From NCBI GenBank assembly GCA_037130135.1, contig JBAXTO010000002.1:288695-352694 (forward strand): a stretch of 64,000 nucleotides of DNA, read 5' to 3'. The notes under the pieces were generated by a model. That model saw only the letters and a list, made by a program, of their open reading frames with translations. It ran no database searches and was not told the origin of the DNA. Source of the stretch: Bacteroidota bacterium. GTDB lineage: Bacteria; Bacteroidota; Bacteroidia; Chitinophagales; CAMDFR01. The position numbers and the translations under genes were made by a program. Below, in pieces: positions 4,373-60,008 of this stretch; the first letter of the stretch is position 1; every line of letters begins with the position of its first letter.

Positions 4373-4414
4373 TGCACTTCAAAGTTATTACTTTTACCAC
4401 TTAGTTAATTTATT

Positions 4415-13500: not shown

Positions 13501-13663
13501 ATGGGGTGAAATGTTATTTGAAACTTCTCGTCAAGATTATGGATGGGATGGTAGTTATAAAGGCATAATTCAAAATCCAGGCGTTTATATTTATAAAGTA
13601 GATGCTGAATATTTAAATGGTAAAAAAATAGCTCAAAGTGGCAGTGTTACTTTAATGAAATAA
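7529..13663 (+). CDS. giant T9SS-secreted cell-surface adhesin (Ig-like repeats, SprB-type repeats, type B gliding-motility C-terminal domain)
   Basis: 2044 aa. Signal peptide, 13 tandem ~76-aa units, then C.G..NG....T..GG.PPYT.. SprB-like repeats. The C-terminus reads IYIPNAFTPNGDGENDKFYVYG...FDRWGEMLF...WDG, a CHU_C/type B CTD. Confidence 0.85.
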   Translation: MRKSYFLLLFVICYQLTYAQIVGTNVYLQGTKTEVGISNCGSFGTAIPPAVPVGYHNNVTSRGLGFVADAGRNGWTTAGPGTLPNYCGDYFLPGSPVEGFGVQIGTTNFRNFNNSGICDFNQMPGSILCYQNTPQRKSATWRSTGLVSGAIRVSATTYVPDTALFFVTQVQLCNESGTTQRNVYYLRHLDPDNDQPWTGGSFTTDNTVVSQGSSTTPALVTARSVLQCYLGLGSESPNAKVSVGGFAPPLLSSDVYNGVSPYTTTVGYNSRADEAISLCFKFDSIRPGECICFGYAHVLNPSDLNRALALTSSAISFYSDSTDISDSLKINLCYGDSSKVKALSNCASSYIWNWVADPPGSIVGSTSYDSVRIAPQVNTIYTALGSGTCGVDTYRVIVTVDTLLKNSRITPIDSAICMGATSTITAIGGTSYSWSPGGATTSSVSVTPLSTTTYTVTITSPFRCRRIFSTRVLVDTIRANAGIDDSLCPGRSITLGGAPTTTGIGFPTTWTGYPPTASAYLSSTTASNPTLTIPSVGASGSIGYLVTSTRYGCIARDSVSIRILTAPPIDFTGLDSIYCISSAAELLTGTPAGGVFSGSGMIGSNFTPLIAGVGGPKKILYTYTFPNGCIGKDSAFTYVDSLPKVRFTGLASSYCVYDSAVILRPTPSGGIFSGTGIIGNTFNPSIAGPGTFNIRYAYTNPVSLCYDDTIISVTVYARPVVDIIGLDSLYCQYESPDTLVGSPSGGVFSGTGIIGSVFYPNLAGTSTIIQIIYTYTNPTTGCVNRDTGYTTVSNRPTTGIVGLSSNYCIYDPIDTLIGSPAGGTFSGPGITSNRFNPAAAGVGGPYRIIYYYINPVTGCSNADTQLIYVRPRPIVNFTGLASQYCFYDSTALLTGTPNGGTFSGTGIIPTNRFSPSTAGVSSSINIYYTYTDTFGCINYDTNTTRVNARPIISFSGLATQYCYYAPSVTLTGSPAGGTFSGTGITGTTFNPATAGIGTHTIRYSYTDPVTGCFNMDSQSVIINDRPIVSISGLLPRYCVHATPVVITGSPAGGVFSGIGMSGSTFNPATAGIGGPYLITYSYTSPTTGCSRIDSEYVSVLPRPIVSFGGLATQYCLYDSAALLTGIPAGGTYSGTGIIPTNRFSPSTAGVNPSINIYYTYTDTNGCINYDTNTTRVNARPIVSFTGLATQYCFYAPNVTLTGSPLGGTFSGTGISGTTFSPSTAGIGTYYIKYSYTDPTTGCTNIDSQRVVINDRPVVSFSGLATRYCLTSPNATLIGSPTGGTFSGTGISGTTFSPTIAGIGGPYMIIYNYTSPTTGCSNSDTQYVSVNVLPDPSFTGLANQYCFYSPNVTLTGIPSGGTFSGTGISGTTFSPSTAGIGGPYRIIYSYTDPVTGCSDNDTQFVTVTGRPTITISGLARKYCINSAPATITATPSGGWFTGVGLFGNTFNPAVAGVGGPYDIVYYVIDSATGCFNKDSLTTNVYALPIANFTGLNPAYCLNAPLAPLTGIPAGGTFSGTGISGTNFNAATAGVGGPYSITYSYTDTNGCSDDTFRNTVVNPLPIANAGLDDTICYGSTTSLTATGGSTYLWSPGGGTTSSILVAPLANTTYTVTVTDINNCSASDNVTISVKIITSNMSHTNVTCYRAKNGTATVTPTNGIPPYSFVWSDSRAQTTQTADSLDIGTYSVTITDGEGCTGTKSVIITEPTLYTITIVPTDVNCGGDSTGKVTITSSGGTPPYTYSYSKDGIRFFTTRIATNLTVGTYTGFSADANGCTVNIDFVINEPQPLAIQYNLSEPKCYGYSDGAIFVLATGATPPYTFTINPNSNSTGWFTNLPAGLHQLTVTDSNNCEFIYQLTLGQPDPVVVDINPDTLILELGESGQFFTSFTGAPADSVSFEWNTPSGLNCTDCPNPIVNPYVDKVYTVKVYDISDISNPYPCMGEAIGYVIVSDGQPIYIPNAFTPNGDGENDKFYVYGKDLKIVHMQIFDRWGEMLFETSRQDYGWDGSYKGIIQNPGVYIYKVDAEYLNGKKIAQSGSVTLMK
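9225..12215 (+). repeat. 13 tandem ~230-bp coding repeats inside the adhesin gene
   Basis: Each unit follows the pattern F(T/S)GL..YC......L.G.P.GG.FSG.GI....F.P..AG.GG...I.Y.YT....GC...D. Units 5-7 and 8-10 form a 690-bp higher-order duplication. Confidence 0.85.
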
Positions 13664-20603: not shown

Positions 20604-21617
20604 CTATTTACCAATAAAAGAATTTAAATCATCAATACTACTTTCAAATTTAAATGCATCATTAACTTTAAAATAATTACCTACATCAAAAGTATGAGCA
20701 TAGGCATGTTTTGAAAAATCTAATCGTGATTCTTCAAAAGAAAATAAATCCATAATTTGTTTTACTTGACTTGCAGTTAAGCAATTTGAATTAGCCACTT
20801 GTTTAGCAGTTGTAAGTTTACTTTCTTCAAATGATTTAGATGAAATACTTGCTTTTGCGCTATTAAAATCGGCATCTTTCATCGGCCATCCATTACAACC
20901 AGTTGGACCTGTATAACCACTCATATAAGGTTGTTCTGTTATCACTCCTCCATTGGTATTGGTATTCGTACTAGTTGTAGTGGTAGTAGTGCTATAAGTT
21001 GTGGTAGTGGTAGCATTTGAATTTAAATAAGGATCATTAATATTTACATTCATCCCTAAACCAACCCCATCCACATTTACATTTACATTTGCTCCAACAT
21101 TACCATTTGTATTAATATTTGAATTTGTTGTACCATCATTTACTGTAGTAGTAGTAGTTGTTGTTGTTGTAGAATAGGTAATAGGAGCTTTAGCAACCGT
21201 AGTATATTTAATTTCTTTTACTCCTGGTTCAGTAGGAGGAGCTAATACCATAGCTACTTGTACAAACATTCTTAATGCTCTAGAACCATCTTTAGTGTTT
21301 ATTATATGATAATTCGTTTCATAAGGTTGCCCTCTATCATCTTGGATATAGAGCATTTTTTTCTCAATCATAGGAATGTTTTTATCCTCAAAAATAATTT
21401 TAGCTGAATAATAAGGTGCTGTTAAATTGGTTACTTTAACATTCGTTTCAGGTAAATCATTTTGTCTGATACCATTAAGAATTAAATAAAATTTTTGACC
21501 ATCTTCAGAAAAAACGATCAAATTCCCACTTAAACCATCATTAGGTCCGCCCATTTGAGCAAACATATTGGTACTGATAATTAAACTTGCGACGAATAGT
21601 AAAATTTTGTTTTTCAT
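20604..21617 (-). CDS. DUF4476 domain-containing secreted protein
   Basis: Start taken at MKNKILLF. The C-terminal block AKQVANSNCLTASQVKQIMDLFSFEESRLDFSKHAY...NYFKVNDAF matches my memory of DUF4476. A poly-Thr/Asn linker sits in the middle. Confidence 0.6.
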   Translation of the reverse strand: MKNKILLFVASLIISTNMFAQMGGPNDGLSGNLIVFSEDGQKFYLILNGIRQNDLPETNVKVTNLTAPYYSAKIIFEDKNIPMIEKKMLYIQDDRGQPYETNYHIINTKDGSRALRMFVQVAMVLAPPTEPGVKEIKYTTVAKAPITYSTTTTTTTTTVNDGTTNSNINTNGNVGANVNVNVDGVGLGMNVNINDPYLNSNATTTTTYSTTTTTTSTNTNTNGGVITEQPYMSGYTGPTGCNGWPMKDADFNSAKASISSKSFEESKLTTAKQVANSNCLTASQVKQIMDLFSFEESRLDFSKHAYAHTFDVGNYFKVNDAFKFESSIDDLNSFIGK

Positions 21618-21664
21618 TATATTTAAATTTTTGTGACTTTTCCTAGACAACTAATATGCCAAAA

Positions 21665-22537
21665 TTATTTAACAATTGCTTTATTTAACTCATTGATACT
21701 ATTTTCCGTAGTAAATACATCATTTAGTTTAAAATAATTTCCTTTATCAATAGTATAAACATACGCATATTTAGCCAATTCCAATCTTGAATCTTCTAAC
21801 TCAAATAATTTGACAATTGTTTTTACTTGAGTAACACTTAAACAGTTGTTGCTTATTATTTGTTTAGCAGACAACATCTTTCCTTCAGTAGTAGATCTTG
21901 CTTTTATACTGGAAATGGCGCTATTATAATCTTCTTCACCTAATATATTTCCTGAACAAGGTAAAGATACGGTAGTAGGTGCCGTGGTAGAAACTACGGT
22001 GGTAGTAGTTTGTTCGGTGGTAGTATTAGAATTGCCACCTGTATTAAAACTTACTGAACCTCCTAGTCCCCCTATATTTACATTTACCCCTGATTTGACA
22101 GGTTCAGTAGTGGTGGTTGTAGTTTGTTGAACGACTTGGTTTCCTGCATTTACTACTACAACTGTAGGTTTGTTTGTTTCGATATAACCTGGATAAGTTG
22201 TTTGTGATTTCCAATAAAGACCCATTTCATCTTTATTATTTTTTTTCAAAACATAGGTAACATCTACTGGTGCCCCTTGTGCATCATGTACATTAAATAT
22301 TTTCTTTTCTATATTCCCAATAGTACCATCAACAAACACAATTTTTATTGAATAATAAGATTGAGTTAAATTCAGCATTCGAACACGCTCAGCAGGTTCT
22401 TCATTTTTTTTCTCCCCATTAAGAAATACAGTAAACTTTTCACCATTTAGTGCGAAAATGGTACAATGTGAGTAAAATTCAGCTTGACTTATAAGACTGG
22501 TTAAAATAAAGGATAAAAAAAATAAAACTTTTTTCAT
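21665..22537 (-). CDS. DUF4476 domain-containing secreted protein (tandem paralogue)
   Basis: Same N-terminal and C-terminal blocks as the neighbouring gene (AKQIISNNCLSVTQVKTIVKLFELEDSRLELAKYAY). Confidence 0.6.
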   Translation of the reverse strand: MKKVLFFLSFILTSLISQAEFYSHCTIFALNGEKFTVFLNGEKKNEEPAERVRMLNLTQSYYSIKIVFVDGTIGNIEKKIFNVHDAQGAPVDVTYVLKKNNKDEMGLYWKSQTTYPGYIETNKPTVVVVNAGNQVVQQTTTTTTEPVKSGVNVNIGGLGGSVSFNTGGNSNTTTEQTTTTVVSTTAPTTVSLPCSGNILGEEDYNSAISSIKARSTTEGKMLSAKQIISNNCLSVTQVKTIVKLFELEDSRLELAKYAYVYTIDKGNYFKLNDVFTTENSINELNKAIVK

Positions 22538-32165: not shown

Positions 32166-33104
32166 TTATTTTTTTCGTTCCCAATATTTATAATTTTCTT
32201 TATAATCTTCTATTATTTTAATATAATTATCATATCTATTTGCATCGATATCTCCTTTAGCAACCGCCATTTTAACGGCACATTTGGGCTCTTCCATATG
32301 CATACAATTATTAAACTGGCATTGATTTACCAAAGCTTTCATCTCAGGAAAAAAGCCACTGATTTCTTCAATTTCAAAACCCATAATACCAAATTCTTTA
32401 ATTCCTGGCGTATCAATAATGAGTGTTTCAGCATCGTCCACTTCAATCATTTCAGCAAAAGTGGTAGTATGTATACCTTTATCATGTTTAGAAGAAATAT
32501 CTCCGGTACGTAAGCTTAAGTGTGGATTTAATGCATTTAATAAAGTACTTTTTCCTACCCCAGAATGACCAGATAGTAATGTTGTTTTTCCTTTCAGCTT
32601 CTGGCGAACTAGTTCAATATCTGCTGTATCTAAACAAGAAATAGTTAAAGTATCATATCCAATTTTTTTATAGATGGCCTCTAACTCTTCTTGTTTGTCA
32701 ACTTCTTTAGCATTTAGTAAATCTTTTTTATTAAAAACAATAATTACTGGAATGGCGTACGCTTCAGCTACTAACAAAAAACGATCAATAAAACCTGATG
32801 AAGTACGAGGAGATGCAATTGTAACTAAAATAATTGCTTGGTCGAGATTAGAAGCGATAATATGTTTGGCATGTTTATGTTTAGGAGACTCTCTAACCAT
32901 ATAGTTTTTCCGAGGGTGAATAGCACTTACTACATAATCGCCCTCTTCATTTTCCATATCTACAATATCGCCAACAGCAATAGGATTAGTAGATTGTATG
33001 TCTTCTAGTCTAATTTTACCTTTCAAGCGGCATGAACGCATTTCGCCAGTTTGATCTTTAATTTCATACCAACTACCCGTGCTTTTATATACAGTACCTG
33101 TCAT
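32166..33104 (-). CDS. rsgA: ribosome small-subunit-dependent GTPase A
   Basis: Circularly permuted GTPase: NKKD precedes GHSGVGKSTLLN. C-terminal zinc finger C.F..C.H..EP.CAV. Confidence 0.9.
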   Translation of the reverse strand: MTGTVYKSTGSWYEIKDQTGEMRSCRLKGKIRLEDIQSTNPIAVGDIVDMENEEGDYVVSAIHPRKNYMVRESPKHKHAKHIIASNLDQAIILVTIASPRTSSGFIDRFLLVAEAYAIPVIIVFNKKDLLNAKEVDKQEELEAIYKKIGYDTLTISCLDTADIELVRQKLKGKTTLLSGHSGVGKSTLLNALNPHLSLRTGDISSKHDKGIHTTTFAEMIEVDDAETLIIDTPGIKEFGIMGFEIEEISGFFPEMKALVNQCQFNNCMHMEEPKCAVKMAVAKGDIDANRYDNYIKIIEDYKENYKYWERKK

Positions 33105-33230
33105 CCTCTAATCTTATATAACAAAGATATAGGATGTTCTAAAAAGAAACTATTTTTTTCTTTTTATTAAAATAAATATGACTAAGAACGTATCTTTTTC
33201 TAAATTTACAGCTACATTAAATCCATTCAT

Positions 33231-34145
33231 ATGTATTTATCTATAGTTGTGCCTGTATATAAATCAGAAAACACTTTAGCCGAATTGACAAAACGAATTG
33301 GCACTTCTTTACAGGATATTTGTGGTACTAACTATGAAATCATTTTTGTTGAAGATTGTGGTGGAGATAATAGTTGGCAAGTAATAGAACAACTGAAAAA
33401 AGAATTTCCTAATAATATAAGAGGTATTAAACTATCTAGAAATTTTGGACAACACAATGCTATATTATGCGGTTTTAATAGTATAAAAGGTGACTTGGTA
33501 ATTACTATGGATGATGATTTACAAAATCCACCTGAGGAAATTCCTAAACTTATTGCCAAACAAAAAGAAACCAATGCCGATTTGGTATATGCCATATATG
33601 ACGATAAAAAACATAGTGGTGTTAGAAATTTAGGAAGCTATCTCGTAAAAAAAGTTTTTAAAATTGTATTTAATGCTAAGCCAGATGGAAGTTCCTTTCG
33701 CTTGATGCAAGCCAGTTTAGTACATAAACTTACTATTCACAATCAAAACTTCGTGTTTATTGATGGTTTGATTCATTGGCATACTAGTAATATTGCCTAT
33801 CAGCATACTGAACACCATACAAGAAAACATGGAAGCAGTAACTATACTTGGACTAAATTAATTCAATTAACCACGAATCTTTTTTTCAATTTTACCGTTA
33901 TCCCTTTAAGAATTATAACCGTGGTAGGTATTATTGTATCGATTTTGAGTTTTTTAATGGGATTGTTTTTTGGAATTCGTAAATTATTTTATGATATGCC
34001 ATTAGGTTATACTTCAATAGTTACAAGTATATTATTCTCTACTAGTTTAATTATGATAAGTTTGGGAGTAATAGGTGAATATATCAGTAGAATATATATG
34101 TTGCAAAACAACAAACCACAGTTTTCTATAGAAAAACACATTTAG
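33231..34145 (+). CDS. GT2 polyprenyl-phosphate glycosyltransferase (ArnC/GtrB-like)
   Basis: VVPVYKSE, VEDCGGD and MDDDLQNPPEEIP motifs, plus two C-terminal TM helices. Confidence 0.8.
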   Translation: MYLSIVVPVYKSENTLAELTKRIGTSLQDICGTNYEIIFVEDCGGDNSWQVIEQLKKEFPNNIRGIKLSRNFGQHNAILCGFNSIKGDLVITMDDDLQNPPEEIPKLIAKQKETNADLVYAIYDDKKHSGVRNLGSYLVKKVFKIVFNAKPDGSSFRLMQASLVHKLTIHNQNFVFIDGLIHWHTSNIAYQHTEHHTRKHGSSNYTWTKLIQLTTNLFFNFTVIPLRIITVVGIIVSILSFLMGLFFGIRKLFYDMPLGYTSIVTSILFSTSLIMISLGVIGEYISRIYMLQNNKPQFSIEKHI

Positions 34146-34149
34146 CCAT

Positions 34150-35166
34150 ATGAAAGCAAGAATACAAGCCATAAGTTATTATTTACCTTTAAGTACTTTA
34201 AGTAATACCGATATTAACAAATTATTTCCTGAATGGAGTATTGATAAAATTGCTGAAAAAACGGGAATTGTCAATCGCCCTATTTCAGGTGCTGATGAAT
34301 TTTCGAGCGATATGGGTATAAAAGCAGCCGAACGTTTATTTGAAGAACATCAAATAGACAGAAACACTATTGACTTTATTTTATTTTGCACCCAAAGTCC
34401 TGATTATTTTTTACCTACAACGGCATGTGTTATTCAAGATCGATTGAATATCCCCACCAGTGCTGGAGCTATGGATTTTAATTTAGGGTGCTCTGGATAT
34501 ATCTATGGATTGGGTGTTGCTAAAGGATTGATTGAAAGTGGTATTGCTAAAAACGTATTGTTTATTACTGCAGAAACTTACACTAAATTTATACATCCAA
34601 ACGATAAAAGTGTACGTACTATTTTTGGGGATGCAGCTGCAGCTACGCTTATTACCGGAATAGAAAGTGTTGAAGAGCAAATTGGACCTTTTGTTTTAGG
34701 AACGGATGGCAAAGGTGCTGAAAAATTAATGGTAAAAAATGGAGGAATGCGACATGCATTCATACATACTGAAGAGGCATTTGGCGAAGACTCTCTAGGT
34801 AATTTTCAATCGAGTGATCATTTATATATGAAAGGCTCTGACATCTTTGTATTTACATTACAATCTGTTCCTAAATTATGCAGAGAATTACTAGAAAAAG
34901 CACAAACCAATTATGATCAAATCGATCTAATCATTTTCCATCAGGCCAATAAGCATATGTTAGAGGCATTGAGAAAAAAAATCAATATCCCTGCTGAGAA
35001 ATTTTACATTTTTATTGAGAACTGTGGTAATACCGTTTCTTCGACTATCCCCATTGCATTGAGTGAAGCCATAAAAGAAGGAAAAGCCAAAAGTGGCGAT
35101 ACCGTGATGTTGGTTGGATTTGGTGTAGGCTATTCTTGGGGAGGAACAATCATTAAAATAGGCTAA
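34150..35166 (+). CDS. 3-oxoacyl-ACP synthase III (FabH-like) family protein
   Basis: Cys-His-Asn triad contexts are intact: NLGCSGY, FHQANKHM, CGNTVSSTIP. Confidence 0.8.
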   Translation: MKARIQAISYYLPLSTLSNTDINKLFPEWSIDKIAEKTGIVNRPISGADEFSSDMGIKAAERLFEEHQIDRNTIDFILFCTQSPDYFLPTTACVIQDRLNIPTSAGAMDFNLGCSGYIYGLGVAKGLIESGIAKNVLFITAETYTKFIHPNDKSVRTIFGDAAAATLITGIESVEEQIGPFVLGTDGKGAEKLMVKNGGMRHAFIHTEEAFGEDSLGNFQSSDHLYMKGSDIFVFTLQSVPKLCRELLEKAQTNYDQIDLIIFHQANKHMLEALRKKINIPAEKFYIFIENCGNTVSSTIPIALSEAIKEGKAKSGDTVMLVGFGVGYSWGGTIIKIG

Positions 35167-35218
35167 AAGCAGAAAAAAACAGCTAAATTTGTACAATCAA
35201 ATTATATAGTTTTAAATT

Positions 35219-35452
35219 ATGGAAACAGCAGAATTTATAGCAAATGTGGAGGAGCAATTTATGGAAACGGATCCTGGTACCATTCAAATGAACACTGAAT
35301 TTAGAAACGTCGAAGAATGGAGTTCATTAATTGCATTAATGTTAATTGCTATGGTAGATGAAAAATATGATGTAGTATTGACAGGTGATGATATTAGAAA
35401 CTCAAATACTATTCAAGACCTATACGATAAAGTAAGTAGTAAACTCAATTAA
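35219..35452 (+). CDS. acyl carrier protein (divergent)
   Basis: 77 aa, acidic. EEWSSLIALMLIAMVDEKY corresponds to the (D/S)SL phosphopantetheine-attachment helix. Confidence 0.6.
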   Translation: METAEFIANVEEQFMETDPGTIQMNTEFRNVEEWSSLIALMLIAMVDEKYDVVLTGDDIRNSNTIQDLYDKVSSKLN

Positions 35453-35466
35453 ACCCTTCATACACG

Positions 35467-36528
35467 ATGGCTTACTTCTCCATTAATCAGGTTGCTGTTG
35501 CAGGAATGAGTGCCTGTGTGCCAAAAGAATACTTCTTAAACTCTCGTGATCAATTACCTGGATTAGACCAAGCGGAATTACTAAAGATAGTAAGTATGAC
35601 GGGTATCGATAAACATCATATTGCTCCTAAAGAAATTTGTACTTCAGATTTGTGTTATACCGCAGCAGAAAAATTAATTGAAAAATTAGCTTGGGGTAAA
35701 AATGAAATCGAACTACTCATTTTTGTTTCACAAACACCCGATTATATCCTACCTATGACGAGTACTATTCTTCAAAACAGATTAGGTCTCTCCTCACAGT
35801 GCTTAGCATTTGATATGTCTATTGGATGTTCTGGTTTCGTATACGGTATGTCGGCAATCTCTAGTATGATTGCAGCTACCAAAATTAAAAAAGCAATTTT
35901 ATTAGTAGGTGATACCATTACTAAAACACTATCCATTAAAGATCGTAGCACTTTTCCATTATTTGGTGATGCCGGTACAGCTACTGCTTTATGTTACGAC
36001 GAACAAGCAGCTCCTATCCATTTTCAATTGAATAGTGATGGAAGTGCTTATAAGGCTATCATTATTAATGATGGTGGACAAAGAAGTCCATTTAGTGAAC
36101 AATCATTATTGCCTATTAAATCAGATGATGGCATTGAAAAAACCAATGCTCAATTGTATTTGAATGGCATGGATGTATTTAATTTTAGTATTACTAAAGC
36201 ACCTAAATCATTCAATGATATTTTACAAGAATCTACAACAAACATAGAAGACATAAACTATTTTGCTTTTCATCAAGCGAATAAATTAATGAATGAAACG
36301 ATTCGTAAAAAACTAAAAATCGATCCTGCTAAATACTTATATAGCCTAGGAAAATATGGCAATACGAGCAGTGCCACTATTCCTTTAACTTTAGTTTCTG
36401 AATTGCAAAACGAACTTAGTACACAATCGCTAAAACTTGGTTTATGTGGCTTTGGGGTTGGGCTTTCATGGGGAAGTATGATTTTAGAAACAAAATCTAT
36501 TTGCACATTACCAGTGATAGAAATTTAA
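35467..36528 (+). CDS. 3-oxoacyl-ACP synthase III (FabH-like) family protein, second copy
   Basis: SIGCSGF, FHQANKLM and YGNTSSATIP; triad intact. Confidence 0.8.
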   Translation: MAYFSINQVAVAGMSACVPKEYFLNSRDQLPGLDQAELLKIVSMTGIDKHHIAPKEICTSDLCYTAAEKLIEKLAWGKNEIELLIFVSQTPDYILPMTSTILQNRLGLSSQCLAFDMSIGCSGFVYGMSAISSMIAATKIKKAILLVGDTITKTLSIKDRSTFPLFGDAGTATALCYDEQAAPIHFQLNSDGSAYKAIIINDGGQRSPFSEQSLLPIKSDDGIEKTNAQLYLNGMDVFNFSITKAPKSFNDILQESTTNIEDINYFAFHQANKLMNETIRKKLKIDPAKYLYSLGKYGNTSSATIPLTLVSELQNELSTQSLKLGLCGFGVGLSWGSMILETKSICTLPVIEI

Positions 36529-36529
36529 T

Positions 36530-37654
36530 ATGGAAAATGATTTTCAATATTTACACGCTATAGTACCTAATGATTATTATCATAATGAAAGTGTTTTTGA
36601 AAAAGAACAAGAACTCATTTTTAAAAATTCATGGTACTATGTCTGCACTACCTTATCGCTCGAAAATCATAATGATTTTGTAACCATAGAAATTGGTGGT
36701 GTATCGGTAGTAGTTCAAAATTTCAGAGGGGTTTATAAAGCCTATCATAATATTTGTACGCATCGTTTCAATAAAATTCAAAATGAACAAAGTGGCAATA
36801 GAGCATTGATTTGTCAATATCATGGCTGGAACTATAATGCCGATGGAGTACCTTATGGTATTCCATTAAAAAAAGAATTTACTGGTTTAGATGATGCAGC
36901 ACTAAAAAAAATCTGTTTAAAAAATTTCGATTTAGAAGTTTGTGGCAAATTTGTTTTTGTAAAAATTACTCCTAGCTCAATATCATTAGAGGAATATTTA
37001 GGTGGTAGCAAAGAACGTATATTACAAATAAGTGCCATGTTAGGTAGGAAAATAGAGTACTATGAAATACCGAATGAAGCCAATTGGAAAATAGTGATGG
37101 AAAACACTTTAGAAGGCTATCATATTAGCACCGTGCATCCTAATACTTTCTATAAACTAGGTTTTAATTTAAAGTCTACGATGGATACAGAAATTCATGG
37201 TTTACATAGCAATATGACACTTTCACTGGGCGATACGAGTCCTAATCCTCATAGAGATAAATTTCATACGATGATTAAACAAAGACCATTTCAACCAGAT
37301 GGGTTTTTTCATCAAATTATATTTCCTAATTTAACAATCGGTTCTGCTTGGGGAGTAACCGTATATATTGGAACCATCAAAGCACTAAATGCCAATCAAT
37401 CGATTTTTGCTTATGATTTATTTGAAACTAATTTAGGAGATGGTAAATTATTAAATGATGCTATTTCAGGGATGGTTAATTTTTCTGCCATTGAATTTAC
37501 ACATACTACTCTAGCAGAAGACAAAGCCATTTGCGAGTCGGTACATAAAGGCATGAAAGAGAAGAATGAAAATATAGGTATACTAAGCAATACAGAGATT
37601 AGGATTATTGAATTTCAAAAAGCCTATTTGAAACAAATGCAGTTAGAAGTATAA
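36530..37654 (+). CDS. Rieske [2Fe-2S] non-haem iron oxygenase, alpha-subunit type, stand-alone
   Basis: CTHR...(17 aa)...CQYHGW Rieske motif and a mononuclear-iron EGYHISTVHP (H-x4-H) segment. Confidence 0.8.
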   Translation: MENDFQYLHAIVPNDYYHNESVFEKEQELIFKNSWYYVCTTLSLENHNDFVTIEIGGVSVVVQNFRGVYKAYHNICTHRFNKIQNEQSGNRALICQYHGWNYNADGVPYGIPLKKEFTGLDDAALKKICLKNFDLEVCGKFVFVKITPSSISLEEYLGGSKERILQISAMLGRKIEYYEIPNEANWKIVMENTLEGYHISTVHPNTFYKLGFNLKSTMDTEIHGLHSNMTLSLGDTSPNPHRDKFHTMIKQRPFQPDGFFHQIIFPNLTIGSAWGVTVYIGTIKALNANQSIFAYDLFETNLGDGKLLNDAISGMVNFSAIEFTHTTLAEDKAICESVHKGMKEKNENIGILSNTEIRIIEFQKAYLKQMQLEV

Positions 37655-37715
37655 TCATTTCTATTTTTGTACAACTCATTTTATTCACTTACATTTATAC
37701 AAATATTGATTTGTT

Positions 37716-38465
37716 ATGCACCCATTTGATTTAAGTCAAAAAACTATTTTAATTACTGGAGCATCTTCAGGAATTGGTCGTCAAACTGCCATTACTTTAG
37801 CTTCGCTCGGTGCTCGATGTATAATCACAGGTAGAAATGAAGAGCAATTAGATTATACTTTAAGTAGCATGAGTGGTGCTAATCATTATAAAATTCAAGC
37901 AGATTTATGTCAAGAAGATGACTTAAAAAAATTAGTGAATGAAATTGAACCGCTTGATGGAGTGGTTTTCTCAGCCGGAATAGTAAAGGTATTACCTTTT
38001 CGTTTCATCAATAAGCCTGATATGAAAAATATTTTTGAAACCAATTTTGAAGCACCTGTTTTTTTATTACAATCTATCATCAAAGCAAAAAAATTACAGA
38101 AAAAAGCAGCTGTACTTTTTATTAGTTCAATAAGTGGAGTAAAGGTAGGATTAGTTGCCAATGGCATGTATAGTGCTAGTAAGGCTGCTTTATCAGGTAT
38201 TACAAAAACATTAGCATTAGAATTAGCGCCACAACATATTCGCGTAAATACCCTAGCTCCAGGAATGGTGCGCACCGAAATGATTAGCGATGGAGTAAGT
38301 GCTTCTGTATCTTCCGAAGCACTGAGTGAAGATGAAAAGATTTATCCATTAGGTTATGGAGATGTAAACGATGTGGCAAACACCATTGCCTTTTTAATGT
38401 CGGATGCTTCCAAATGGATCACAGGTACTGATATTATTATAGATGGTGGTTATTCATGTAAATAA
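37716..38465 (+). CDS. SDR family oxidoreductase (FabG-like ketoreductase)
   Basis: TGASSGIG cofactor motif and the catalytic S...YSASK. Confidence 0.85.
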   Translation: MHPFDLSQKTILITGASSGIGRQTAITLASLGARCIITGRNEEQLDYTLSSMSGANHYKIQADLCQEDDLKKLVNEIEPLDGVVFSAGIVKVLPFRFINKPDMKNIFETNFEAPVFLLQSIIKAKKLQKKAAVLFISSISGVKVGLVANGMYSASKAALSGITKTLALELAPQHIRVNTLAPGMVRTEMISDGVSASVSSEALSEDEKIYPLGYGDVNDVANTIAFLMSDASKWITGTDIIIDGGYSCK

Positions 38466-38491
38466 ATTATTCATTATAAATTATATAAATT

Positions 38492-39463
38492 ATGAACTTT
38501 TCTAAATTAGATTCAGATAGATTTCAGTTGAATATATTCCGTGACAATTATGAGCAATTACCTGCCGACCTTTTAAATCAGTTGATAGAGAACAAAGTTG
38601 ATATAGGTATATTACGTTTAAACACCAAAGAACAAGCAAGTTTAAACCTACTAGATAATATGGGATTGCCATTTATAGTGGCTGATACATTAGTGGAATA
38701 TATTGCTAAAACAAGTGCACCTAAAGAATTGAAACTATTAAACAAAGATATTGAAGTACTAGAAGCTCATACTGAATCTGATTGGAAAGAGGTAGACCGA
38801 ATGGTGGAGTTGTGTTTTTCCAATTATTCGAATCATTATTTTTCAAATCCTTATTTAAGTAAAATAGGAAATATTGAAGGTTATAAAGAATGGTCGAGAA
38901 ACTGTAGTGGAGACAAAGGAGTGACCTATATAGTAAAAAGCAACTCAGTTGCAGCAGGATTCTTTTCAATAGGATTTAAAGGCGATTTAGCAGATGGTGG
39001 ACCAGGTGGAATTATTCCTGCTTTTGAAGGAAGTGGTTTATACTTAGATTTTCACAAGATGTTGCCTCAATTAATTTTTCAAAAAGGATTAAAAAGACTA
39101 AAAACATCTACTCAAATTCAAAATACCTTAGTACAACGTCAATGGAATATGAGTGGGTGGATGTTAAGTCATTCATGGGTGACGCTTCATGTCAATACGT
39201 TTATTCAAGAAGCTATGAAAGGGAGCAATACTACTAGTAACTATCAACACAGCAATACCATTTCATTTATTGATAGCATTCAACCTTTGGCGGCATACAA
39301 TTCCATTCAAATGCATCAATTACATCCTTTAGTAGAAAATGCCAGTTATACTGTACATATCAGTCACGAAATTAAAAACTATAATAACAATAGCTCTATT
39401 CGTTCTGTAGTGATTGAAGATGCTACTAATAAAATTCAAGTATTAGCTTGGTTAAAAGCATAG
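38492..39463 (+). CDS. GNAT-fold acyltransferase candidate (WecD / TDP-fucosamine acetyltransferase-like)
   Basis: The N-terminus LDSDRFQLNIFR resembles the WDS.FFG..I.R start of WecD-type enzymes. A central block GFFSIG...GGIIPAFEGSGL is GNAT motif-A-like. Confidence 0.4.
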   Translation: MNFSKLDSDRFQLNIFRDNYEQLPADLLNQLIENKVDIGILRLNTKEQASLNLLDNMGLPFIVADTLVEYIAKTSAPKELKLLNKDIEVLEAHTESDWKEVDRMVELCFSNYSNHYFSNPYLSKIGNIEGYKEWSRNCSGDKGVTYIVKSNSVAAGFFSIGFKGDLADGGPGGIIPAFEGSGLYLDFHKMLPQLIFQKGLKRLKTSTQIQNTLVQRQWNMSGWMLSHSWVTLHVNTFIQEAMKGSNTTSNYQHSNTISFIDSIQPLAAYNSIQMHQLHPLVENASYTVHISHEIKNYNNNSSIRSVVIEDATNKIQVLAWLKA

Positions 39464-39503
39464 ATTATAAATTGATTCATCATAAAGAGTTTAGATAATT
39501 ATC

Positions 39504-39511
39504 TATCTTTG
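39504..39511 (+). promoter_or_regulatory. candidate -7 box (TATCTTTG) for thiL, implying a near-leaderless mRNA
   Basis: Perfect TAnnTTTG ending 5 nt before the thiL ATG. Confidence 0.3.
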
Positions 39512-39516
39512 CAAGT

Positions 39517-40551
39517 ATGAATGAAAAACGTACAGAAATAGCAAGCTTAGGTGAATTTGGACTGATTAAACAATTGACTCAACAATTTCCCATCAACCAA
39601 AAATCTACGATAAAAGGAATTGGTGATGATGCTGCAGTAATTAAATATAGTATAGATAAACATACTGTGATCAGTACTGATTTGTTATTAGAAGGGATTC
39701 ATTTTGATTTGATGTATTGTCCTTTAAAACATTTAGGATATAAATCTGTAGTAGTAAACGTTTCTGATATTTATGCCATGAATGCCATTCCTCGTCAAAT
39801 TACTGTATCTATTGGTATATCGAATCGTTTTTCAGTAGAAGCTCTAGAAGAATTTTATGATGGCGTACGTTTAGCCTGTAAAAATTATGGAGTAGATCTA
39901 ATTGGTGGAGACACTACTTCTTCGCAAAAAGGCTTTATCATTAGTATTACTGCTATTGGTGAGGTAGAAGAATCAAAATTAGCTTATAGAAATACCGCGA
40001 AAGAAGGTGATTTGATATTTGTTACGGGAGATTTAGGTGCTTCTTATTTAGGTTTACAGATATTGGAAAGAGAAAAGAAAATATTTATAGAAAATCCTGG
40101 GGTTGAAGTAAAATTAGAAGAAGATCAATATTTAGTAGAGCGACAATTAAAGCCGGAAGCACAACGTGAAACGGTAGAATTATTTCATGAATTAGAAATT
40201 ACTCCTACTGCTATGATTGATATTTCTGATGGTTTATCCTCCGAATTAAAACATATCTGTGCGCAATCAAATGTGGGTTGTCATATATTTGAAGAACAAA
40301 TTCCCATATTTCAAGAGACTTATGATGCGGCATTGAAATTACATTTAGATCCTATCACCTGTGCAATGAATGGTGGTGAAGATTATGAGTTATTATTCTG
40401 CATGAATAAAACAGATGCACAAAAAATATATGGTCGACATGGAATTAAATGTATAGGAGAAATTAAAAACGCATCCTACGGTTTAGTATTAGAAAGCAAA
40501 GCAGGATTCCATCACGAAATAACTGCACAAGGCTGGAATCATATATTATAA
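39517..40551 (+). CDS. thiL: thiamine-monophosphate kinase
   Basis: AIR-synthase-related fold (GDDAAV, GGDTT). 344 aa. The N-terminus GEFGLI..L is typical of ThiL. Confidence 0.8.
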   Translation: MNEKRTEIASLGEFGLIKQLTQQFPINQKSTIKGIGDDAAVIKYSIDKHTVISTDLLLEGIHFDLMYCPLKHLGYKSVVVNVSDIYAMNAIPRQITVSIGISNRFSVEALEEFYDGVRLACKNYGVDLIGGDTTSSQKGFIISITAIGEVEESKLAYRNTAKEGDLIFVTGDLGASYLGLQILEREKKIFIENPGVEVKLEEDQYLVERQLKPEAQRETVELFHELEITPTAMIDISDGLSSELKHICAQSNVGCHIFEEQIPIFQETYDAALKLHLDPITCAMNGGEDYELLFCMNKTDAQKIYGRHGIKCIGEIKNASYGLVLESKAGFHHEITAQGWNHIL

Positions 40552-40560
40552 AAGTTATTT

Positions 40561-41655
40561 TTATCTAAACGGATTTTGAAATTTCGGATTCACAACTACA
40601 GTAGAATCTGTCATGCTCAACATAAATGCTACTAAATCATCTCGCTCGCTATTCGTTAAGTTCAATCGAATATTTCCGGTATGAATCATTACTGCATCTA
40701 GAGTTGGCGACATGTGTACACTATCCGCATAAAAATCTACCACTTCACGTAAGGTACTAAAACGTCCATCAAATCCATAAGGTGCTGTATACGCTAAATT
40801 GCGTAAGCTAGGTGTTTTCATTTTTCCGTTATCTGTCTGCACATTAGTAATAGCTCCTCTACCATTATCCGCAAAATTAAAACTACCATCATTGTATTGT
40901 ATACCGTCATTATGAAATTGATTATCTGTAGTTAGAATATTAGTGAAATGACAATGGAAACAATCTGCTCTGGCAGAAGTAAATAATAGAAAACCGCGAG
41001 AAGCAGCTGGGCTAAGCTGTGTATAATCATTGGTTGTAAAAAATTTCTTATCTATTTCTGATTCGCCACTTGAAATAATACTTCGCATAAATTGCGAGAT
41101 AGCTTTTAATACATTTTCTTTTGTAACAGCATCGCAACCAAAAGCTTTTTTAAAGTTAGCTGCGTAGAAACTATTATTTTCTAAATAAGGCAATGTTACT
41201 TCCCAGTTAACCTCCATTTCATTTTTGGTTGCATCATCAACAGCCTCTTCTATACTAGCACTTCGACCATCAAAGAAAAATTTATTTTGAAAGCCCGCAT
41301 TTAAAAGTGCCGGAGTATTTCTTTTAGTCATTAAACCTTTGCTATTCGTACTAAATTGTTTGCCTCCATCACTAAAGCCAAATTCAGGTTTATGGCAACT
41401 ACCACAAGAAATTTGATGATTAATTGAAAGTGTAGTATCAAAAAACAAAAACCTTCCTAACTCCACTCCCTCCTCTGTCATAGGATTATCTGTTGGCAAA
41501 TTCATTTCCGGAAATCTAAATGGAGAGGTTAAATTAAAGGGAGTTGCAAATTCAGGGTCGCATTTACTATCAGGTACACATGATGATACAATACTAAACA
41601 CGGAAACTATAATAATGATGATAGCGATGATATGAAATTTATTAAACTTTTTCAT
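40561..41655 (-). CDS. di-haem cytochrome c peroxidase family enzyme (MauG/MbnH-like)
   Basis: Two CxxCH haem sites (CGSCH, CFHCH) and a signal/lipoprotein N-terminus. Confidence 0.8.
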   Translation of the reverse strand: MKKFNKFHIIAIIIIIVSVFSIVSSCVPDSKCDPEFATPFNLTSPFRFPEMNLPTDNPMTEEGVELGRFLFFDTTLSINHQISCGSCHKPEFGFSDGGKQFSTNSKGLMTKRNTPALLNAGFQNKFFFDGRSASIEEAVDDATKNEMEVNWEVTLPYLENNSFYAANFKKAFGCDAVTKENVLKAISQFMRSIISSGESEIDKKFFTTNDYTQLSPAASRGFLLFTSARADCFHCHFTNILTTDNQFHNDGIQYNDGSFNFADNGRGAITNVQTDNGKMKTPSLRNLAYTAPYGFDGRFSTLREVVDFYADSVHMSPTLDAVMIHTGNIRLNLTNSERDDLVAFMLSMTDSTVVVNPKFQNPFR

Positions 41656-58098: not shown

Positions 58099-58953
58099 TC
58101 ATTCTAGTACAACATCCTCAACTTTATATCCTTTTTTTCTCAACAAATTAATCAGTCCGTTTTCTCCTCCTAAATGTCCGGCTCCAACAGCTACTAAAGT
58201 AGGCTTATCAGCCAATAGTGGTATCATTCGAGCCAACATACGTTCATTTCGTTCATCTAATAAATTTTGTATCTCAGTAGGTGACATTTGTTTGATGAGA
58301 TAATCATATAAAAGTGCCACATCATTTTTCATATATAAAGAAGTTGAAAGATCTACTAGCTTTATTGAATCAGCATGAATAAATTCTTTTAAAGCTTGTA
58401 CTTGTTCTTCTAATGGAATACTCAATAAAGAAGACATTTGTTCATTCATAGTTTCTAATCCTTCTACCTTCAATTTCTTTTTTTTCGCTTGTGATTGTAG
58501 GGCTATATCCATATAAAGAGCGTCGGTACTATCTTTATTATCAAGTGTATTCATCTCGATGAAAGCTTGAATGATAATAGGTTGAAATTTTTTTACAAAA
58601 TCAATGGGTATCTTTGCATTTTGATTCAGGTACTGAGTTAAACTGATATATTCTTCTGTGCTTAAATAATCTTGAATACTTTTATTATCAGGCAACGTCA
58701 TTTGATTCACCATACTTAACATCGCCAATGAGTTTTCCATTTTTACTTCTAGTGCATAGGTTTTACAATGTGGTAATAAGGCTTTTGCTTTTTCAAATAT
58801 AGGTACTGAATCTTGATATAATATATGAATAGTTCCAAGTAAATAGGAAGGGTCTTTCACATTTTTTCCGCTTATTTTAAGTAGAAGTGATTGGGCGAAA
58901 ATGGCAGAAGAAGATAAAACTAATACGATTAATAACAGGATACTTTTTTTCAT
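58099..58953 (-). CDS. TraB/GumN family protein
   Basis: Signal peptide, a GTIH motif (LLGTIHIL) and a C-terminal VAVGAGHLGGENG. Confidence 0.75.
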   Translation of the reverse strand: MKKSILLLIVLVLSSSAIFAQSLLLKISGKNVKDPSYLLGTIHILYQDSVPIFEKAKALLPHCKTYALEVKMENSLAMLSMVNQMTLPDNKSIQDYLSTEEYISLTQYLNQNAKIPIDFVKKFQPIIIQAFIEMNTLDNKDSTDALYMDIALQSQAKKKKLKVEGLETMNEQMSSLLSIPLEEQVQALKEFIHADSIKLVDLSTSLYMKNDVALLYDYLIKQMSPTEIQNLLDERNERMLARMIPLLADKPTLVAVGAGHLGGENGLINLLRKKGYKVEDVVLE

Positions 58954-60008
58954 GAATAATTTTTATGAAAATAGATAGGTATAGCTATAACACCCATCAA
59001 TAAATAGATATGGTAACTTAAAAAACGCCAAATCAAAGTGGCTACCTGAATTAATTTATTGGGTATAAATTGACATAGCAATGCTAAGAAAGAAATTTCT
59101 GCAACACCAATTCCTCCTGGAGAGAGAGGCAATATGCTTAAGGTTCTAATAAAATATAATTTAGAATATACATCTAAAACATTAGGGAATTGTTTCATCA
59201 TAGATGCAATCACAAAAAACGCTAGAATATAACGTGCGCTCCATGAACAAAAAGTAAAAAATATGGCTTGTAACCAAAAGTTAATACTTTTTGATTTTGC
59301 TTCTTTAGAAGCGATTACGATATCTGTTCCGGCCTGATTTAATTGGGTTTGCCATCTATTAATCAAGGGTAAATTCCCTAGTATTTGATAGGCTTTTTGC
59401 AAACTTTTGGCATTCATAAAAAGCCCATAAAATAAAACCAAATACACTATCAATAAAAAAGTATACACTATTAAAATCAAACTTTTGAAATAAGGTATTA
59501 ATTCTAAAAAGGCTTTATTATCAATACAAGTAATATTAATCTGAAAAAAGTTTGCTCCTACTAAAATATATAAAACTGGCAGTAGAATAATAAAAATTAA
59601 TTCATCTAAAAAAGCTGTTATAAGAATAATTGATGTGCTTTTTCCTAAGGATATCTTTTCCTTTTGTAATAAAAAAACTGCAGCAATGGGTCCTCCGAAT
59701 GCACTTGGAGTAACAGCACTTGCAAACTCCCACAGAATTACAATTTGTATCAATTTACCCCATGAAATAATTCGATCTGTAAGTAAACGTAATCGAAAGA
59801 CATAATTTGCGTCACGAATGATAAACAGCAAAACAGCAAATACCATAAAAACAATAAATCGAGTATTTATTTCGATAGATTGAATTAAAGACCAAGAAAT
59901 ATCTTTTCCGATATACAGGGCAATGAGTACACTTAACAATAAAGGCAAAAGTGCTTTGTATGCACTAAAAGAAAAAGTCTTAGAGGAATTATTCGGCTGG
60001 GCTTTCAC
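58950..60008 (-). CDS. lysylphosphatidylglycerol-synthase-TM-region (flippase-like, UPF0104) membrane protein
   Basis: 352 aa with about 8 TM helices and a conserved-looking PLSPGGIGVAE segment. Confidence 0.55.
   Translation of the reverse strand: MKAQPNNSSKTFSFSAYKALLPLLLSVLIALYIGKDISWSLIQSIEINTRFIVFMVFAVLLFIIRDANYVFRLRLLTDRIISWGKLIQIVILWEFASAVTPSAFGGPIAAVFLLQKEKISLGKSTSIILITAFLDELIFIILLPVLYILVGANFFQINITCIDNKAFLELIPYFKSLILIVYTFLLIVYLVLFYGLFMNAKSLQKAYQILGNLPLINRWQTQLNQAGTDIVIASKEAKSKSINFWLQAIFFTFCSWSARYILAFFVIASMMKQFPNVLDVYSKLYFIRTLSILPLSPGGIGVAEISFLALLCQFIPNKLIQVATLIWRFLSYHIYLLMGVIAIPIYFHKNYS

Follow-up and report, generated by a model that had tools for sequence, protein, structure and literature searches.

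A 64,000-nt stretch of contig JBAXTO010000002.1 from a Bacteroidota bacterium (the window) carries, at positions 33231–39463, a cassette of seven plus-strand open reading frames (ORFs), here called g1–g7. We infer that this cassette makes a lipid-linked N-acylated 4-amino-6-deoxy sugar for the decoration of envelope glycans, a reading of the whole chain of steps and its chemistry that we favor with modestly better than even confidence. N-acylation of a sugar by the cassette is very probable and loading onto polyprenyl phosphate is probable, while the acyl chain as the place of Rieske oxygenation is less certain than either. Most likely, the cassette joins two known kinds of pathway in a combination not yet described. 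The predicted products of the seven genes are the following:

g1, 33231–34145, plus strand: GT2 glycosyltransferase of 304 aa with a C-terminal membrane anchor (Pfam GT2; ArnC/GtrB alignment)
g2, 34150–35166, plus strand: β-ketoacyl-ACP synthase III (KAS III) condensing enzyme a, 338 aa, Cys114/His264/Asn294 (Pfam ACP_syn_III and ACP_syn_III_C)
g3, 35219–35452, plus strand: probable dedicated acidic acyl carrier protein (ACP), 77 aa, pI 4.05, Ser36 in WSSL (alignment and conservation)
g4, 35467–36528, plus strand: KAS III condensing enzyme b, 353 aa, Cys121/His269/Asn299 (both KAS III Pfam domains)
g5, 36530–37654, plus strand: alpha-only Rieske non-heme-iron oxygenase, 374 aa, CntA/GbcA-like (Pfam Rieske and Ring_hydroxyl_A, both above cut-offs)
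g6, 37716–38465, plus strand: FabG-like short-chain dehydrogenase/reductase (SDR) ketoreductase, 249 aa (Pfam adh_short, adh_short_C2 and KR)
g7, 38492–39463, plus strand: WecD-like N-acyltransferase, assigned by fold; an N-terminal domain precedes the GNAT core (residues 125–235, approximately), and the last 88 aa form a hotdog-fold domain

Conservation and setting of the cassette

Successive genes are separated by 4, 52, 14, 1, 61, and 26 nt. A preliminary description of this DNA had reported seven same-strand genes lying 1–61 nt apart, and its coordinates are exact. Among public sequences, the closest relative of the window is the freshwater metagenome-assembled genome (MAG) Saprospirales bacterium RE-4nov15-381 (L007; the labels L001–L028 denote sampled homologous loci), which is collinear with the window over 28.5–45.3 kb at 89–90% nucleotide identity. 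The ratio of nonsynonymous to synonymous substitution (dN/dS) between the two is 0.02–0.07 for each of g1–g7, which marks strong purifying selection throughout the block.

The identical seven-gene order is present in L004, L007, L008, and L009, that is, in at least four other genomes and in two chromosomal settings, with amino-acid identities to the window of about 48–82% for the cassettes of L004, L008, and L009. The preliminary description had named a lack of co-conservation as a ground for abandoning its reading; the block is kept in all four loci. The same order in two settings, together with the low dN/dS, indicates that the arrangement is not due to chance.

Three features flank the cassette in the window, whose G+C content is about 31%:

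rsgA, 32166–33104, minus strand: divergent from g1; read from the translation only
rsgA/g1 divergent intergenic region, 33105–33230, plus strand: 126 nt, presumed promoter, by position only
thiL, 39517–40551: downstream flank of g7 (TIGR01379, 319 bits)

In L004, cca, miaA, and an MFS transporter gene (Pfam) lie upstream of the cassette, and L008 probably has the same upstream genes, since its ORFs agree in size and its DNA is collinear with L004 at 74% nucleotide identity. L008 (CAMDFR010000021.1) and L009 (CAMBZT010000007.1) are both titled 'Chitinophaga pinensis'. This species label looks doubtful, since the cassette is about 70% identical at the amino-acid level to that of the Saprospirales-like window and L008 is collinear with L004. 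Scans of positions 32900–40700 returned 40 sigma-70 promoters against 43.6 expected, a chance result from a model that is uninformative for a Bacteroidota genome, and four intrinsic terminators against 2.9 expected, all four inside coding sequence. Both being at chance level, they permit no statement on operon structure.

Predicted enzymes of acyl chain assembly

The two condensing enzymes are about 34% identical to each other. Their Cys/His/Asn triads, read from the GCSG, HQAN, and GNT motifs, are intact, which together with the two Pfam domains places both in KAS III. The NCBIfam model PRK09352 has a cut-off of 249 bits, which g2 passes with 289 and g4 misses with 230; the best matches in the PDB are 3gwa for g2 (E = 3e-105) and 4efi for g4 (E = 8e-64). 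The reductase g6 is a classical SDR, with TGASSGIG at residues 14–21 (TGxxxGIG) and YSASK at residues 152–156 (YxxxK). ACP models match g3 weakly (E about 2e-3; Pfam PP-binding 18.2 bits against a cut-off of 20.8). Its Ser36 aligns with the phosphopantetheine serine in the DSL motif of the solved ACP 2fq0, and Trp34 and Ser36 are invariant in eight orthologues. The preliminary description had listed two FabH-type enzymes with intact triads, a small acidic carrier protein, and a FabG-like SDR, and these assignments hold for the condensing enzymes and the SDR; that of the carrier protein is probable, given its pI and its aligned, invariant serine.

A set of genes with a similar predicted role is found in the O-antigen locus of Flavobacterium psychrophilum, where wfpC (KAS III, 333 aa), wfpD (ACP, 76 aa), and wfpE (KAS III, 350 aa) are accompanied by wfpF, a ketoreductase of 242 aa, and wfpG, a PglD-like acyltransferase (Cisar et al. 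2019, PMC6519341). The authors of that study predicted that wfpC–G make a 3,5-dihydroxyhexanoyl group, which passes from the ACP to the 4-amino group of UDP-Qui2NAc4N; the 3,5-dihydroxyhexanoyl group itself is chemically established on the F. psychrophilum O-antigen (PMC6519341). The genes g2, g3, g4, and g6 (338, 77, 353, and 249 aa) share the order and nearly the sizes of wfpC, wfpD, wfpE, and wfpF. The earlier statement that no characterized pathway has this gene set therefore stands in part: in the open literature we found no paper describing the whole set, but its KAS III/ACP/reductase part is already annotated, as a prediction, in the Flavobacterium locus.

The Rieske oxygenase and its clade

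In g5, the ligands of the [2Fe-2S] cluster (Cys76, His78, Cys95, and His98) and of the iron (His198, His203, and Asp331), as well as Glu195, are invariant in seven relatives. In agreement with the Pfam domains, these residues bear out the earlier description of g5 as a stand-alone Rieske/non-heme-iron oxygenase. The best PDB match is the carnitine monooxygenase CntA (6y8j; E = 4e-25, about 92 bits), and the best NCBIfam model is GbcA, for which the score of 103.9 bits is below the cut-off of 670.

The clade of g5 comprises at least 138 clusters at 90% identity (E ≤ 1e-30). Eight genomic contexts of this clade were sampled outside the window, with L021 and L024 counted as one:

L004, window type: seven-gene cassette around the Rieske gene
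L006, window type: KAS III, ACP, KAS III, Rieske, SDR, and g7-like genes, with WecE, GT2s, and a polytopic protein on the flanks
L021/L024, Marinilongibacter type: PMT_2 GT-C, ACP, KAS III, KAS III, PglD-like, GT2, Rieske, FAD oxidase
L022, Chryseobacterium aureum O-polysaccharide locus: PglC-like, KAS III, ACP, KAS III, Rieske, SDR, PglD-like, FNR/Fer2 reductase, DegT
L026, metagenome contig: ACP, KAS III, SDR, Rieske::PglD-like fusion, KAS III
L027, metagenome contig: KAS III/ACP cassette within a polysaccharide locus
L028, Flavobacterium sp.: KAS III/ACP cassette within a polysaccharide locus
L025, Nostoc: type I polyketide synthase (PKS)/PfaD cluster, without KAS III

KAS III and ACP genes accompany the Rieske gene in seven of these eight contexts, together with an amino-sugar N-acyltransferase or a DegT gene, which ties the clade to KAS III/ACP sugar-acylation modules. 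The preliminary description had considered a Rieske oxygenase inside a FabH/ACP/SDR cassette to be particularly unusual; given these counts, the arrangement is not a one-off. Furthermore, L026 encodes at 3345–5108 a 587-aa fusion of an N-terminal g5-clade Rieske oxygenase with a C-terminal PglD/NeuD-like hexapeptide sugar N-acyltransferase, which places the Rieske enzyme physically at the acyl-transfer step.

The clusters of Marinilongibacter aquaticus (L021, 4009–12486) and of a related 5-Mb genome (L024, 3974–12486) encode a PMT_2 GT-C protein of about 670 aa, an FAD amine-oxidase-like protein, and a Rieske protein 59% identical to g5; the absence of an SDR suggests a different acyl chemistry. 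In Nostoc sp. KVJ3 (L025, 1–13136), the Rieske homologue is 38% identical, and its neighbors are a type I PKS, a PfaD-like enoyl reductase, two sulfotransferases, an adenylyl-sulfate (APS) kinase, a carbamoyltransferase, and an ABC exporter, with no KAS III or sugar genes. A 323-aa protein beside the L027 cassette, which has the length of g7 and no Pfam match, proved to be unrelated to g7.

The ArnC/GtrB-type glycosyltransferase

Residues 3–302 of g1 align with ArnC (9hwj; E = 1.5e-44) and GtrB (5ekp; E = 7e-37). The alignment spans the motif DDDLQNPPEEIP at residues 94–105, with the DDD of the DxD motif at 94–96, as well as the C-terminal membrane region and the GEYI motif, and two hydrophobic segments are found at 216–253 and 258–282. 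This agrees with the preliminary description, which had recognized a polyprenyl-phosphate GT2 by the same motif and two C-terminal transmembrane helices. Against the NCBIfam ArnC model NF007986, g1 scores 174.3 bits, far under the equivalog cut-off of 529. We thus regard it as a predicted polyprenyl-phosphate sugar synthase of the ArnC/GtrB class and not as an ArnC orthologue.

The WecD-like GNAT-hotdog protein

No sequence match to g7 is found in Pfam, NCBIfam, or the PDB, and neither of the NCBIfam WecD models (NF008212 and TIGR02382) matches it at E ≤ 0.01. An AlphaFold (AF2) model built on 13 homologues (pLDDT 92.8) displays the two-domain fold of WecD, an N-terminal domain followed by a GNAT core, and its top fold match in the PDB is WecD itself (2fs5_A; E = 2e-11, TM-score 0.77 on the target, 240 aligned columns). 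In a sample of 59 members of the g7 family, 40 match Pfam GNAT, and weak matches to NF008212 and TIGR02382 occur in 51 and 29 members, respectively (best E = 2e-12). At the level of predicted fold and of family, g7 thus appears WecD-like. The earlier suggestion that it resembles TDP-fucosamine N-acyltransferases is borne out by the fold match and by the 51 of 59 relatives that match a WecD model.

The last 88 residues of g7, modeled alone, give a pLDDT of 93.5, and their 50 best fold matches in the PDB are all hotdog-fold thioesterases or dehydratases, with marginal E values of 2e-3 to 2e-2. A C-terminal MaoC hydratase domain is present in nine of the 59 family members, and none of the window-type members has the hydratase-2 motif. 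A hidden Markov model (HMM) of the C-terminal domain, built on eight window-type sequences, has no significant match to the MaoC-bearing relatives (best E = 8e-6, to another protein), so that sequence homology to MaoC is unproven and the hotdog assignment rests on fold.

A k-mer homologue search with 12 matches had made g7 seem extremely rare, an idea discarded once an exhaustive profile search returned 341 clusters at 50% identity (E ≤ 1e-30); only the window-type subclade is rare.

Neighborhoods of g7 homologues

Genes around g7 homologues were compared in 18 independent loci from Bacteroidota, Acidobacteriota, Desulfobacterota, Actinomycetota, and WOR-3. A full-length g1-like ArnC-type GT2 gene adjoins the g7 homologue in 13 of the 18, across several phyla. 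Genes of one related aminotransferase clade do so in ten (L001, L006, L008–L011, L013, L017, L018, and L020), and the four members of this clade that were scanned all pass the NCBIfam equivalog cut-off for WecE (545–575 bits against 375), which is the dTDP-4-amino-4,6-dideoxygalactose transaminase. In L008 and L009, the WecE gene and an S-adenosylmethionine (SAM) methyltransferase gene lie directly downstream of g7; in the Myroides locus L013, the order is RmlB, RmlA, g7-like, GNAT, WecE. No WecE-type gene is linked to the cassette in the window, L007, or L004.

Three loci contain compact sets around the pair of GT2 and g7-like genes:

L017, 6619–12596, Desulfobacterium MAG: PMT_2 GT-C (745 aa), GT2, g7-like, 122-aa EamA/SMR-like, WecE
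L020, 7040–12670, Desulfobacterium MAG: 665-aa polytopic protein (Pfam DUF7024 only), GT2, g7-like, EamA-like, WecE
L015, 75–8312, WOR-3 MAG: GT2, g7-like, EamA-like, DegT; PMT_2 GT-C about 2 kb downstream

Their EamA/SMR-like proteins are 122–134 aa long. The aminotransferases of L017 and L020 are WecE-type at 53–54% identity, and the DegT protein of L015 is more distant (28%). Three-component systems of periplasmic glycan modification combine a polyprenyl-phosphate-sugar synthase with a flippase and a GT-C enzyme (PMC11127046), and in the Arn pathway ArnC takes an N-acylated sugar (PMC12690121). The sets of L017, L020, and L015 match the three-component scheme and the Arn logic. They are look-alikes of the Arn operon in which a WecE/DegT aminotransferase is combined with a WecD-like GNAT(-hotdog) protein as the putative N-acylating enzyme.

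Polytopic proteins of 458–529 aa also neighbor the g7 homologues of L001, L006, and L010. They have no Pfam match even at E ≤ 1, contain 9–16 hydrophobic segments by a crude hydropathy count, and are mutually dissimilar; a GT-C identity could not be shown for them.

Proposed pathway

In the pathway that we propose, g2, g4, and g6 would use g3 as their private carrier protein and assemble on it a short acyl chain (C4–C6, 3-hydroxy or 3,5-dihydroxy); the nature of this product is proposed because it follows the prediction for wfpC–F in F. psychrophilum. The Rieske enzyme g5 would add an oxygen function to the chain, while this is still an ACP thioester or immediately after it has been transferred, and would receive its electrons from a CntB-like reductase of the kind seen in L022, encoded elsewhere. 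Next, g7 would move the acyl group to a dTDP-4-amino-4,6-dideoxyhexose of the Fuc4N or Qui4N type, at its 4-amino group; the part of g7 that holds the acyl-thioester is probably the hotdog domain. This amino sugar would be supplied by RmlA, RmlB, and an aminotransferase of the WecE type, the genes for which would lie at other places in the genome. Since g7 lies beside an acyl-ACP factory, acetyl is an unlikely choice for the transferred group. Finally, g1 would transfer the N-acyl sugar to undecaprenyl phosphate, and an unlinked flippase and GT-C enzyme would deliver it to a periplasmic acceptor, which may be O-antigen, lipopolysaccharide (LPS) core, lipid A, or a glycoprotein. The preliminary description had outlined the same sequence of acylation on the ACP, oxygenation, transfer by the GNAT, and loading by the GT2. 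Comparative genomics backs each of these links: the integrity, conservation, families, predicted folds, and neighborhoods of the genes are observed, and every chemical step, the sugar, the position of oxygenation, and the acceptor are deduced from them.

Several observations weigh against this pathway. GNAT enzymes normally use acyl-CoA, not acyl-ACP. The protein g7 fails every sequence model, its WecD assignment being drawn from a predicted structure and transitive homology. The Marinilongibacter-type clusters (L021/L024) have a GT2 that is not ArnC-like and no SDR, and the module is thus not uniform. Characterized GtrB/ArnC-type enzymes use UDP-sugars (PMC11127046), and the donor proposed here would be dTDP-linked. 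Within the 64-kb window there is no WecE-type aminotransferase, no match to the FNR/Fer2 reductase of L022, and no GT-C candidate, as no ORF above 400 aa has many hydrophobic segments except one unannotated ORF of 1077 aa with 14 segments. Nor is there an rmlA, rmlB, GtrA, or SMR-type flippase gene among the annotated ORFs of the window (a part of all ORFs, including ten extra ones). With no such aminotransferase, GT-C candidate, or reductase match in the window, the cassette is incomplete on its own.

Alternative explanations

The acyl genes and g7 could instead make an N-acyl nucleotide sugar for a cytoplasmic repeat-unit pathway of O-antigen or capsule, as in F. psychrophilum, with g1 loading an ordinary sugar such as Glc or GlcNAc or acting independently. 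The cassettes of L022, L027, and L028 lie inside polysaccharide loci with Wzx, Wzt, PglC-like proteins, and Leloir glycosyltransferases, L011 is a locus of the ABC-transporter type, and five of the 18 g7-family loci have no g1-like GT2 nearby. The preference of known GtrB-type enzymes for UDP-sugars, and a separate polysaccharide locus in the window at 56–64 kb and beyond, fit this explanation as well. We nevertheless consider it fairly unlikely, as a g1-like GT2 is the immediate neighbor of g7 homologues in 13 of the 18 loci from unrelated phyla, the two are combined in the compact Arn-like sets of L017, L020, and L015, and in the lineage of the window the seven genes, g1 among them, have shifted as one between two sites on the chromosome.

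The Rieske enzyme might also spare the acyl chain and modify the sugar, the nucleotide-sugar, or a lipid-linked intermediate, or act on a quaternary or methylated amine as a CntA/GbcA-like demethylase or C–N-cleaving enzyme. CntA and the glycine-betaine monooxygenase GbcA are indeed its closest solved and curated relatives, and methyltransferases flank the g7 homologues of L001, L008, L010, and L011. But the scores for GbcA and CntA are far under the equivalog cut-offs (104 bits against 670 for GbcA), the clade keeps company with KAS III and ACP genes and not with methyltransferases in seven of eight contexts, and one relative stands beside a type I PKS. In addition, F. psychrophilum needs no Rieske gene for its dihydroxyhexanoyl sugar, an indication that the Rieske enzyme tailors the acyl group. 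This alternative we regard as unlikely. A product other than a sugar seems quite unlikely to us: here the cassette would yield a hydroxy-acid or polyketide-like metabolite, an N-acyl lipid, or an N-acyl amino acid, g7 would acylate a non-sugar amine, and the GT2 would glycosylate the product or be unrelated. The GNAT fold includes acyl-ACP-using N-acyl amino acid synthases and acyl-homoserine lactone (AHL) synthases, g7 matches no curated sugar-acyltransferase model, a Rieske relative occurs in the PKS/PfaD cluster of Nostoc (L025), and no aminotransferase is linked to the cassette in the window. Against these points stand the WecD fold match of g7, the 51 of 59 family members that match a WecD model, and the recurrent neighborhood of WecE-type aminotransferases, RmlA, RmlB, and glycan genes.

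Candidate partners and other genes in the window

The preliminary description had placed the partner genes elsewhere and named a DegT gene at 61442 as one candidate. The first part agrees with the lack of a WecE-type gene and of a GT-C candidate in the window; the DegT gene is the weaker part, as it is not WecE-type (best model DesI, 216 bits against a cut-off of 650) and is directly followed by an acetyltransferase gene of its own, of the NeuD/PglB/VioB family (TIGR03570, 193 bits against 160.8). It could supply a 4-amino sugar, yet nothing links it to the cassette.

The DegT and acetyltransferase genes occupy 60804–62512 on the minus strand of a locus that runs past the end of the window (L023). 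Beyond DegT follow, in order, a Sulfotransfer_4 sulfotransferase, CysQ-, CysN-, CysD-, and CysC-like genes, a Wza-like exporter, an 819-aa protein, and a WecA-like GT4, and the whole looks like a sulfated-polysaccharide locus. About 0.8 kb from the DegT/acetyltransferase pair, a 352-aa polytopic protein with the Pfam domain LPG_synthase_TM (PF03706, MprF flippase-like) is encoded at 58950–60008 on the minus strand. It is a conceivable candidate for a lipid-linked-sugar flippase, with no shown link to the cassette.

Three further regions of the window were recorded:

4415–5551, plus strand: 378-aa protein in which a PagL lipid A 3-O-deacylase domain is confined to residues 62–202 (E = 4e-11); the PagL model has 136 positions, far fewer than the protein has residues; the gene adjoins a polyprenyl synthetase gene (5548–6522, minus strand)
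7529–13663, plus strand: one ORF of 2044 aa, with a local G+C peak of 0.36–0.39 against about 0.31 for the window
20604–22537, minus strand: two adjacent paralogues of 348 and 290 aa, each with a C-terminal DUF4476 domain

Significance

In the open literature, the coverage of which excluded subscription journals, we found no paper on a Rieske oxygenase in such cassettes, on the GNAT-hotdog WecD-like family, or on a WecE/WecD-type analog of the Arn system; the relevant papers that came up on these subjects were those on F. psychrophilum. Taken jointly, three statements would be new: that the Rieske enzyme hydroxylates or desaturates a short 3-hydroxyacyl group while ACP-bound or just transferred, that g1 and g7 belong to an undescribed Arn-like three-component system with a dTDP-derived donor, and that the GNAT-hotdog protein acylates from ACP. 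That all three are correct is possible but doubtful. If they were, the Rieske reaction would be new to its superfamily and would endow the amino sugars of bacteria with a novel family of oxygenated N-acyl groups, and a dTDP-derived N-acyl-4-amino-6-deoxyhexose would serve as lipid-linked donor across several phyla. An Arn-like route built on WecE/WecD-type chemistry would widen the range of lipid-linked donors with which periplasmic glycans are modified.

The antigenicity of O-antigens and capsules depends in large part on the N-acyl groups of amino sugars, the biosynthesis of which is mostly inferred and rarely demonstrated. The tie of a widespread Rieske clade to KAS III/ACP modules predicts oxygenated acyl decorations that have gone unreported, and the window-type members of the GNAT-hotdog family are invisible to Pfam. 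As cultured carriers exist (Chryseobacterium kwangjuense, C. aureum, Marinilongibacter aquaticus, Jiulongibacter, and a Flavobacterium sp.), these predictions are open to ordinary genetics, nuclear magnetic resonance (NMR), or mass spectrometry. The finding is a well-supported, testable prediction of interest to bacterial glycobiologists and overturns no concept.

Comparison with known systems

By sequence score, the cassette proteins fall outside the ArnC, WecD, CntA, and GbcA equivalog families, because they miss all of the respective thresholds.

The oxygenase g5 shares with CntA and GbcA the CxH...CxxH motif, the 2-His-1-carboxylate site, the Glu before the first iron His (Glu195), and the lack of a beta subunit. 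A CntB-like FNR/Fer2 reductase gene adjoins the C. aureum homologue in L022, whereas the window holds no match to that reductase. The context also differs: CntA and GbcA belong to the catabolism of quaternary amines, and g5 appears to belong to the biosynthesis of a glycan acyl chain.

In the enterobacterial common antigen (ECA) pathway, where dTDP-Fuc4N is converted to dTDP-Fuc4NAc, WecD is the enzyme nearest to g7 in fold, and the aminotransferases of the relatives pass the WecE cut-off. Unlike WecD, g7 itself is not matched by the sequence models and has a hotdog domain added at its C terminus; some relatives have a hydratase domain of the MaoC/HadB type there. Its product appears to go to an ArnC-type GT2 and not to a WecF-type transferase.

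Both the cassette and wfpC–G end in a gene for a predicted amino-sugar N-acyltransferase, and g6 sits in the position of wfpF. The F. psychrophilum genes include no Rieske gene, which in the window is placed ahead of the reductase, and their acyltransferase is a PglD-like left-handed beta-helix (hexapeptide) protein, whereas that of the window is the GNAT-hotdog protein g7. The wfp genes follow a PglC-like phosphoglycosyltransferase in a Wzx/Wzy O-antigen locus and act on UDP-Qui2NAc4N, their functions being themselves predictions. The cassette of the window stands behind an ArnC-like GT2 and between rsgA and thiL, not inside an O-antigen locus. The two are related here through C. aureum L022 as a bridge (31–48% identity), not by direct comparison with the wfp proteins.

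As in the GtrA/GtrB/Gtr* systems (Kelly et al. 2024, PMC11127046), the first component is represented, by g1, a putative synthase that a short C-terminal segment anchors in the membrane; neither a flippase nor a GT-C candidate was recognized among the window ORFs scanned, a part of the total. The donors of GtrB-type enzymes are plain UDP-hexoses or UDP-HexNAc, whereas that of the cassette would be an N-hydroxyacyl 4-amino-6-deoxyhexose.

The Arn pathway for lipid A aminoarabinose (ArnB, ArnA, ArnC, ArnD, ArnE/F, and ArnT) has the same apparent logic of 4-aminotransferase, N-acylation, loading by a GT2, a flippase of small membrane proteins, and a GT-C enzyme. The counterpart of the GT-C enzyme would be PMT_2 in L017 and L015 and a polytopic protein of unassigned family in L020, and an EamA/SMR-like protein is present in all three. 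The aminotransferase is ArnB in the Arn pathway and WecE-type (dTDP-6-deoxyhexose) in the relatives of the cassette; the acyl group is a formyl group added by ArnA in the former and probably a hydroxyacyl group delivered by the GNAT in the latter. No ArnD-type deacylase is seen with the cassette, and in the window the GT-C enzyme, flippase, and aminotransferase are unlinked. By analogy, the cassette may work like a hybrid of an N-acyl cassette of the wfpC–G type, the function of which is itself predicted, and an Arn-like three-component system of glycan modification.

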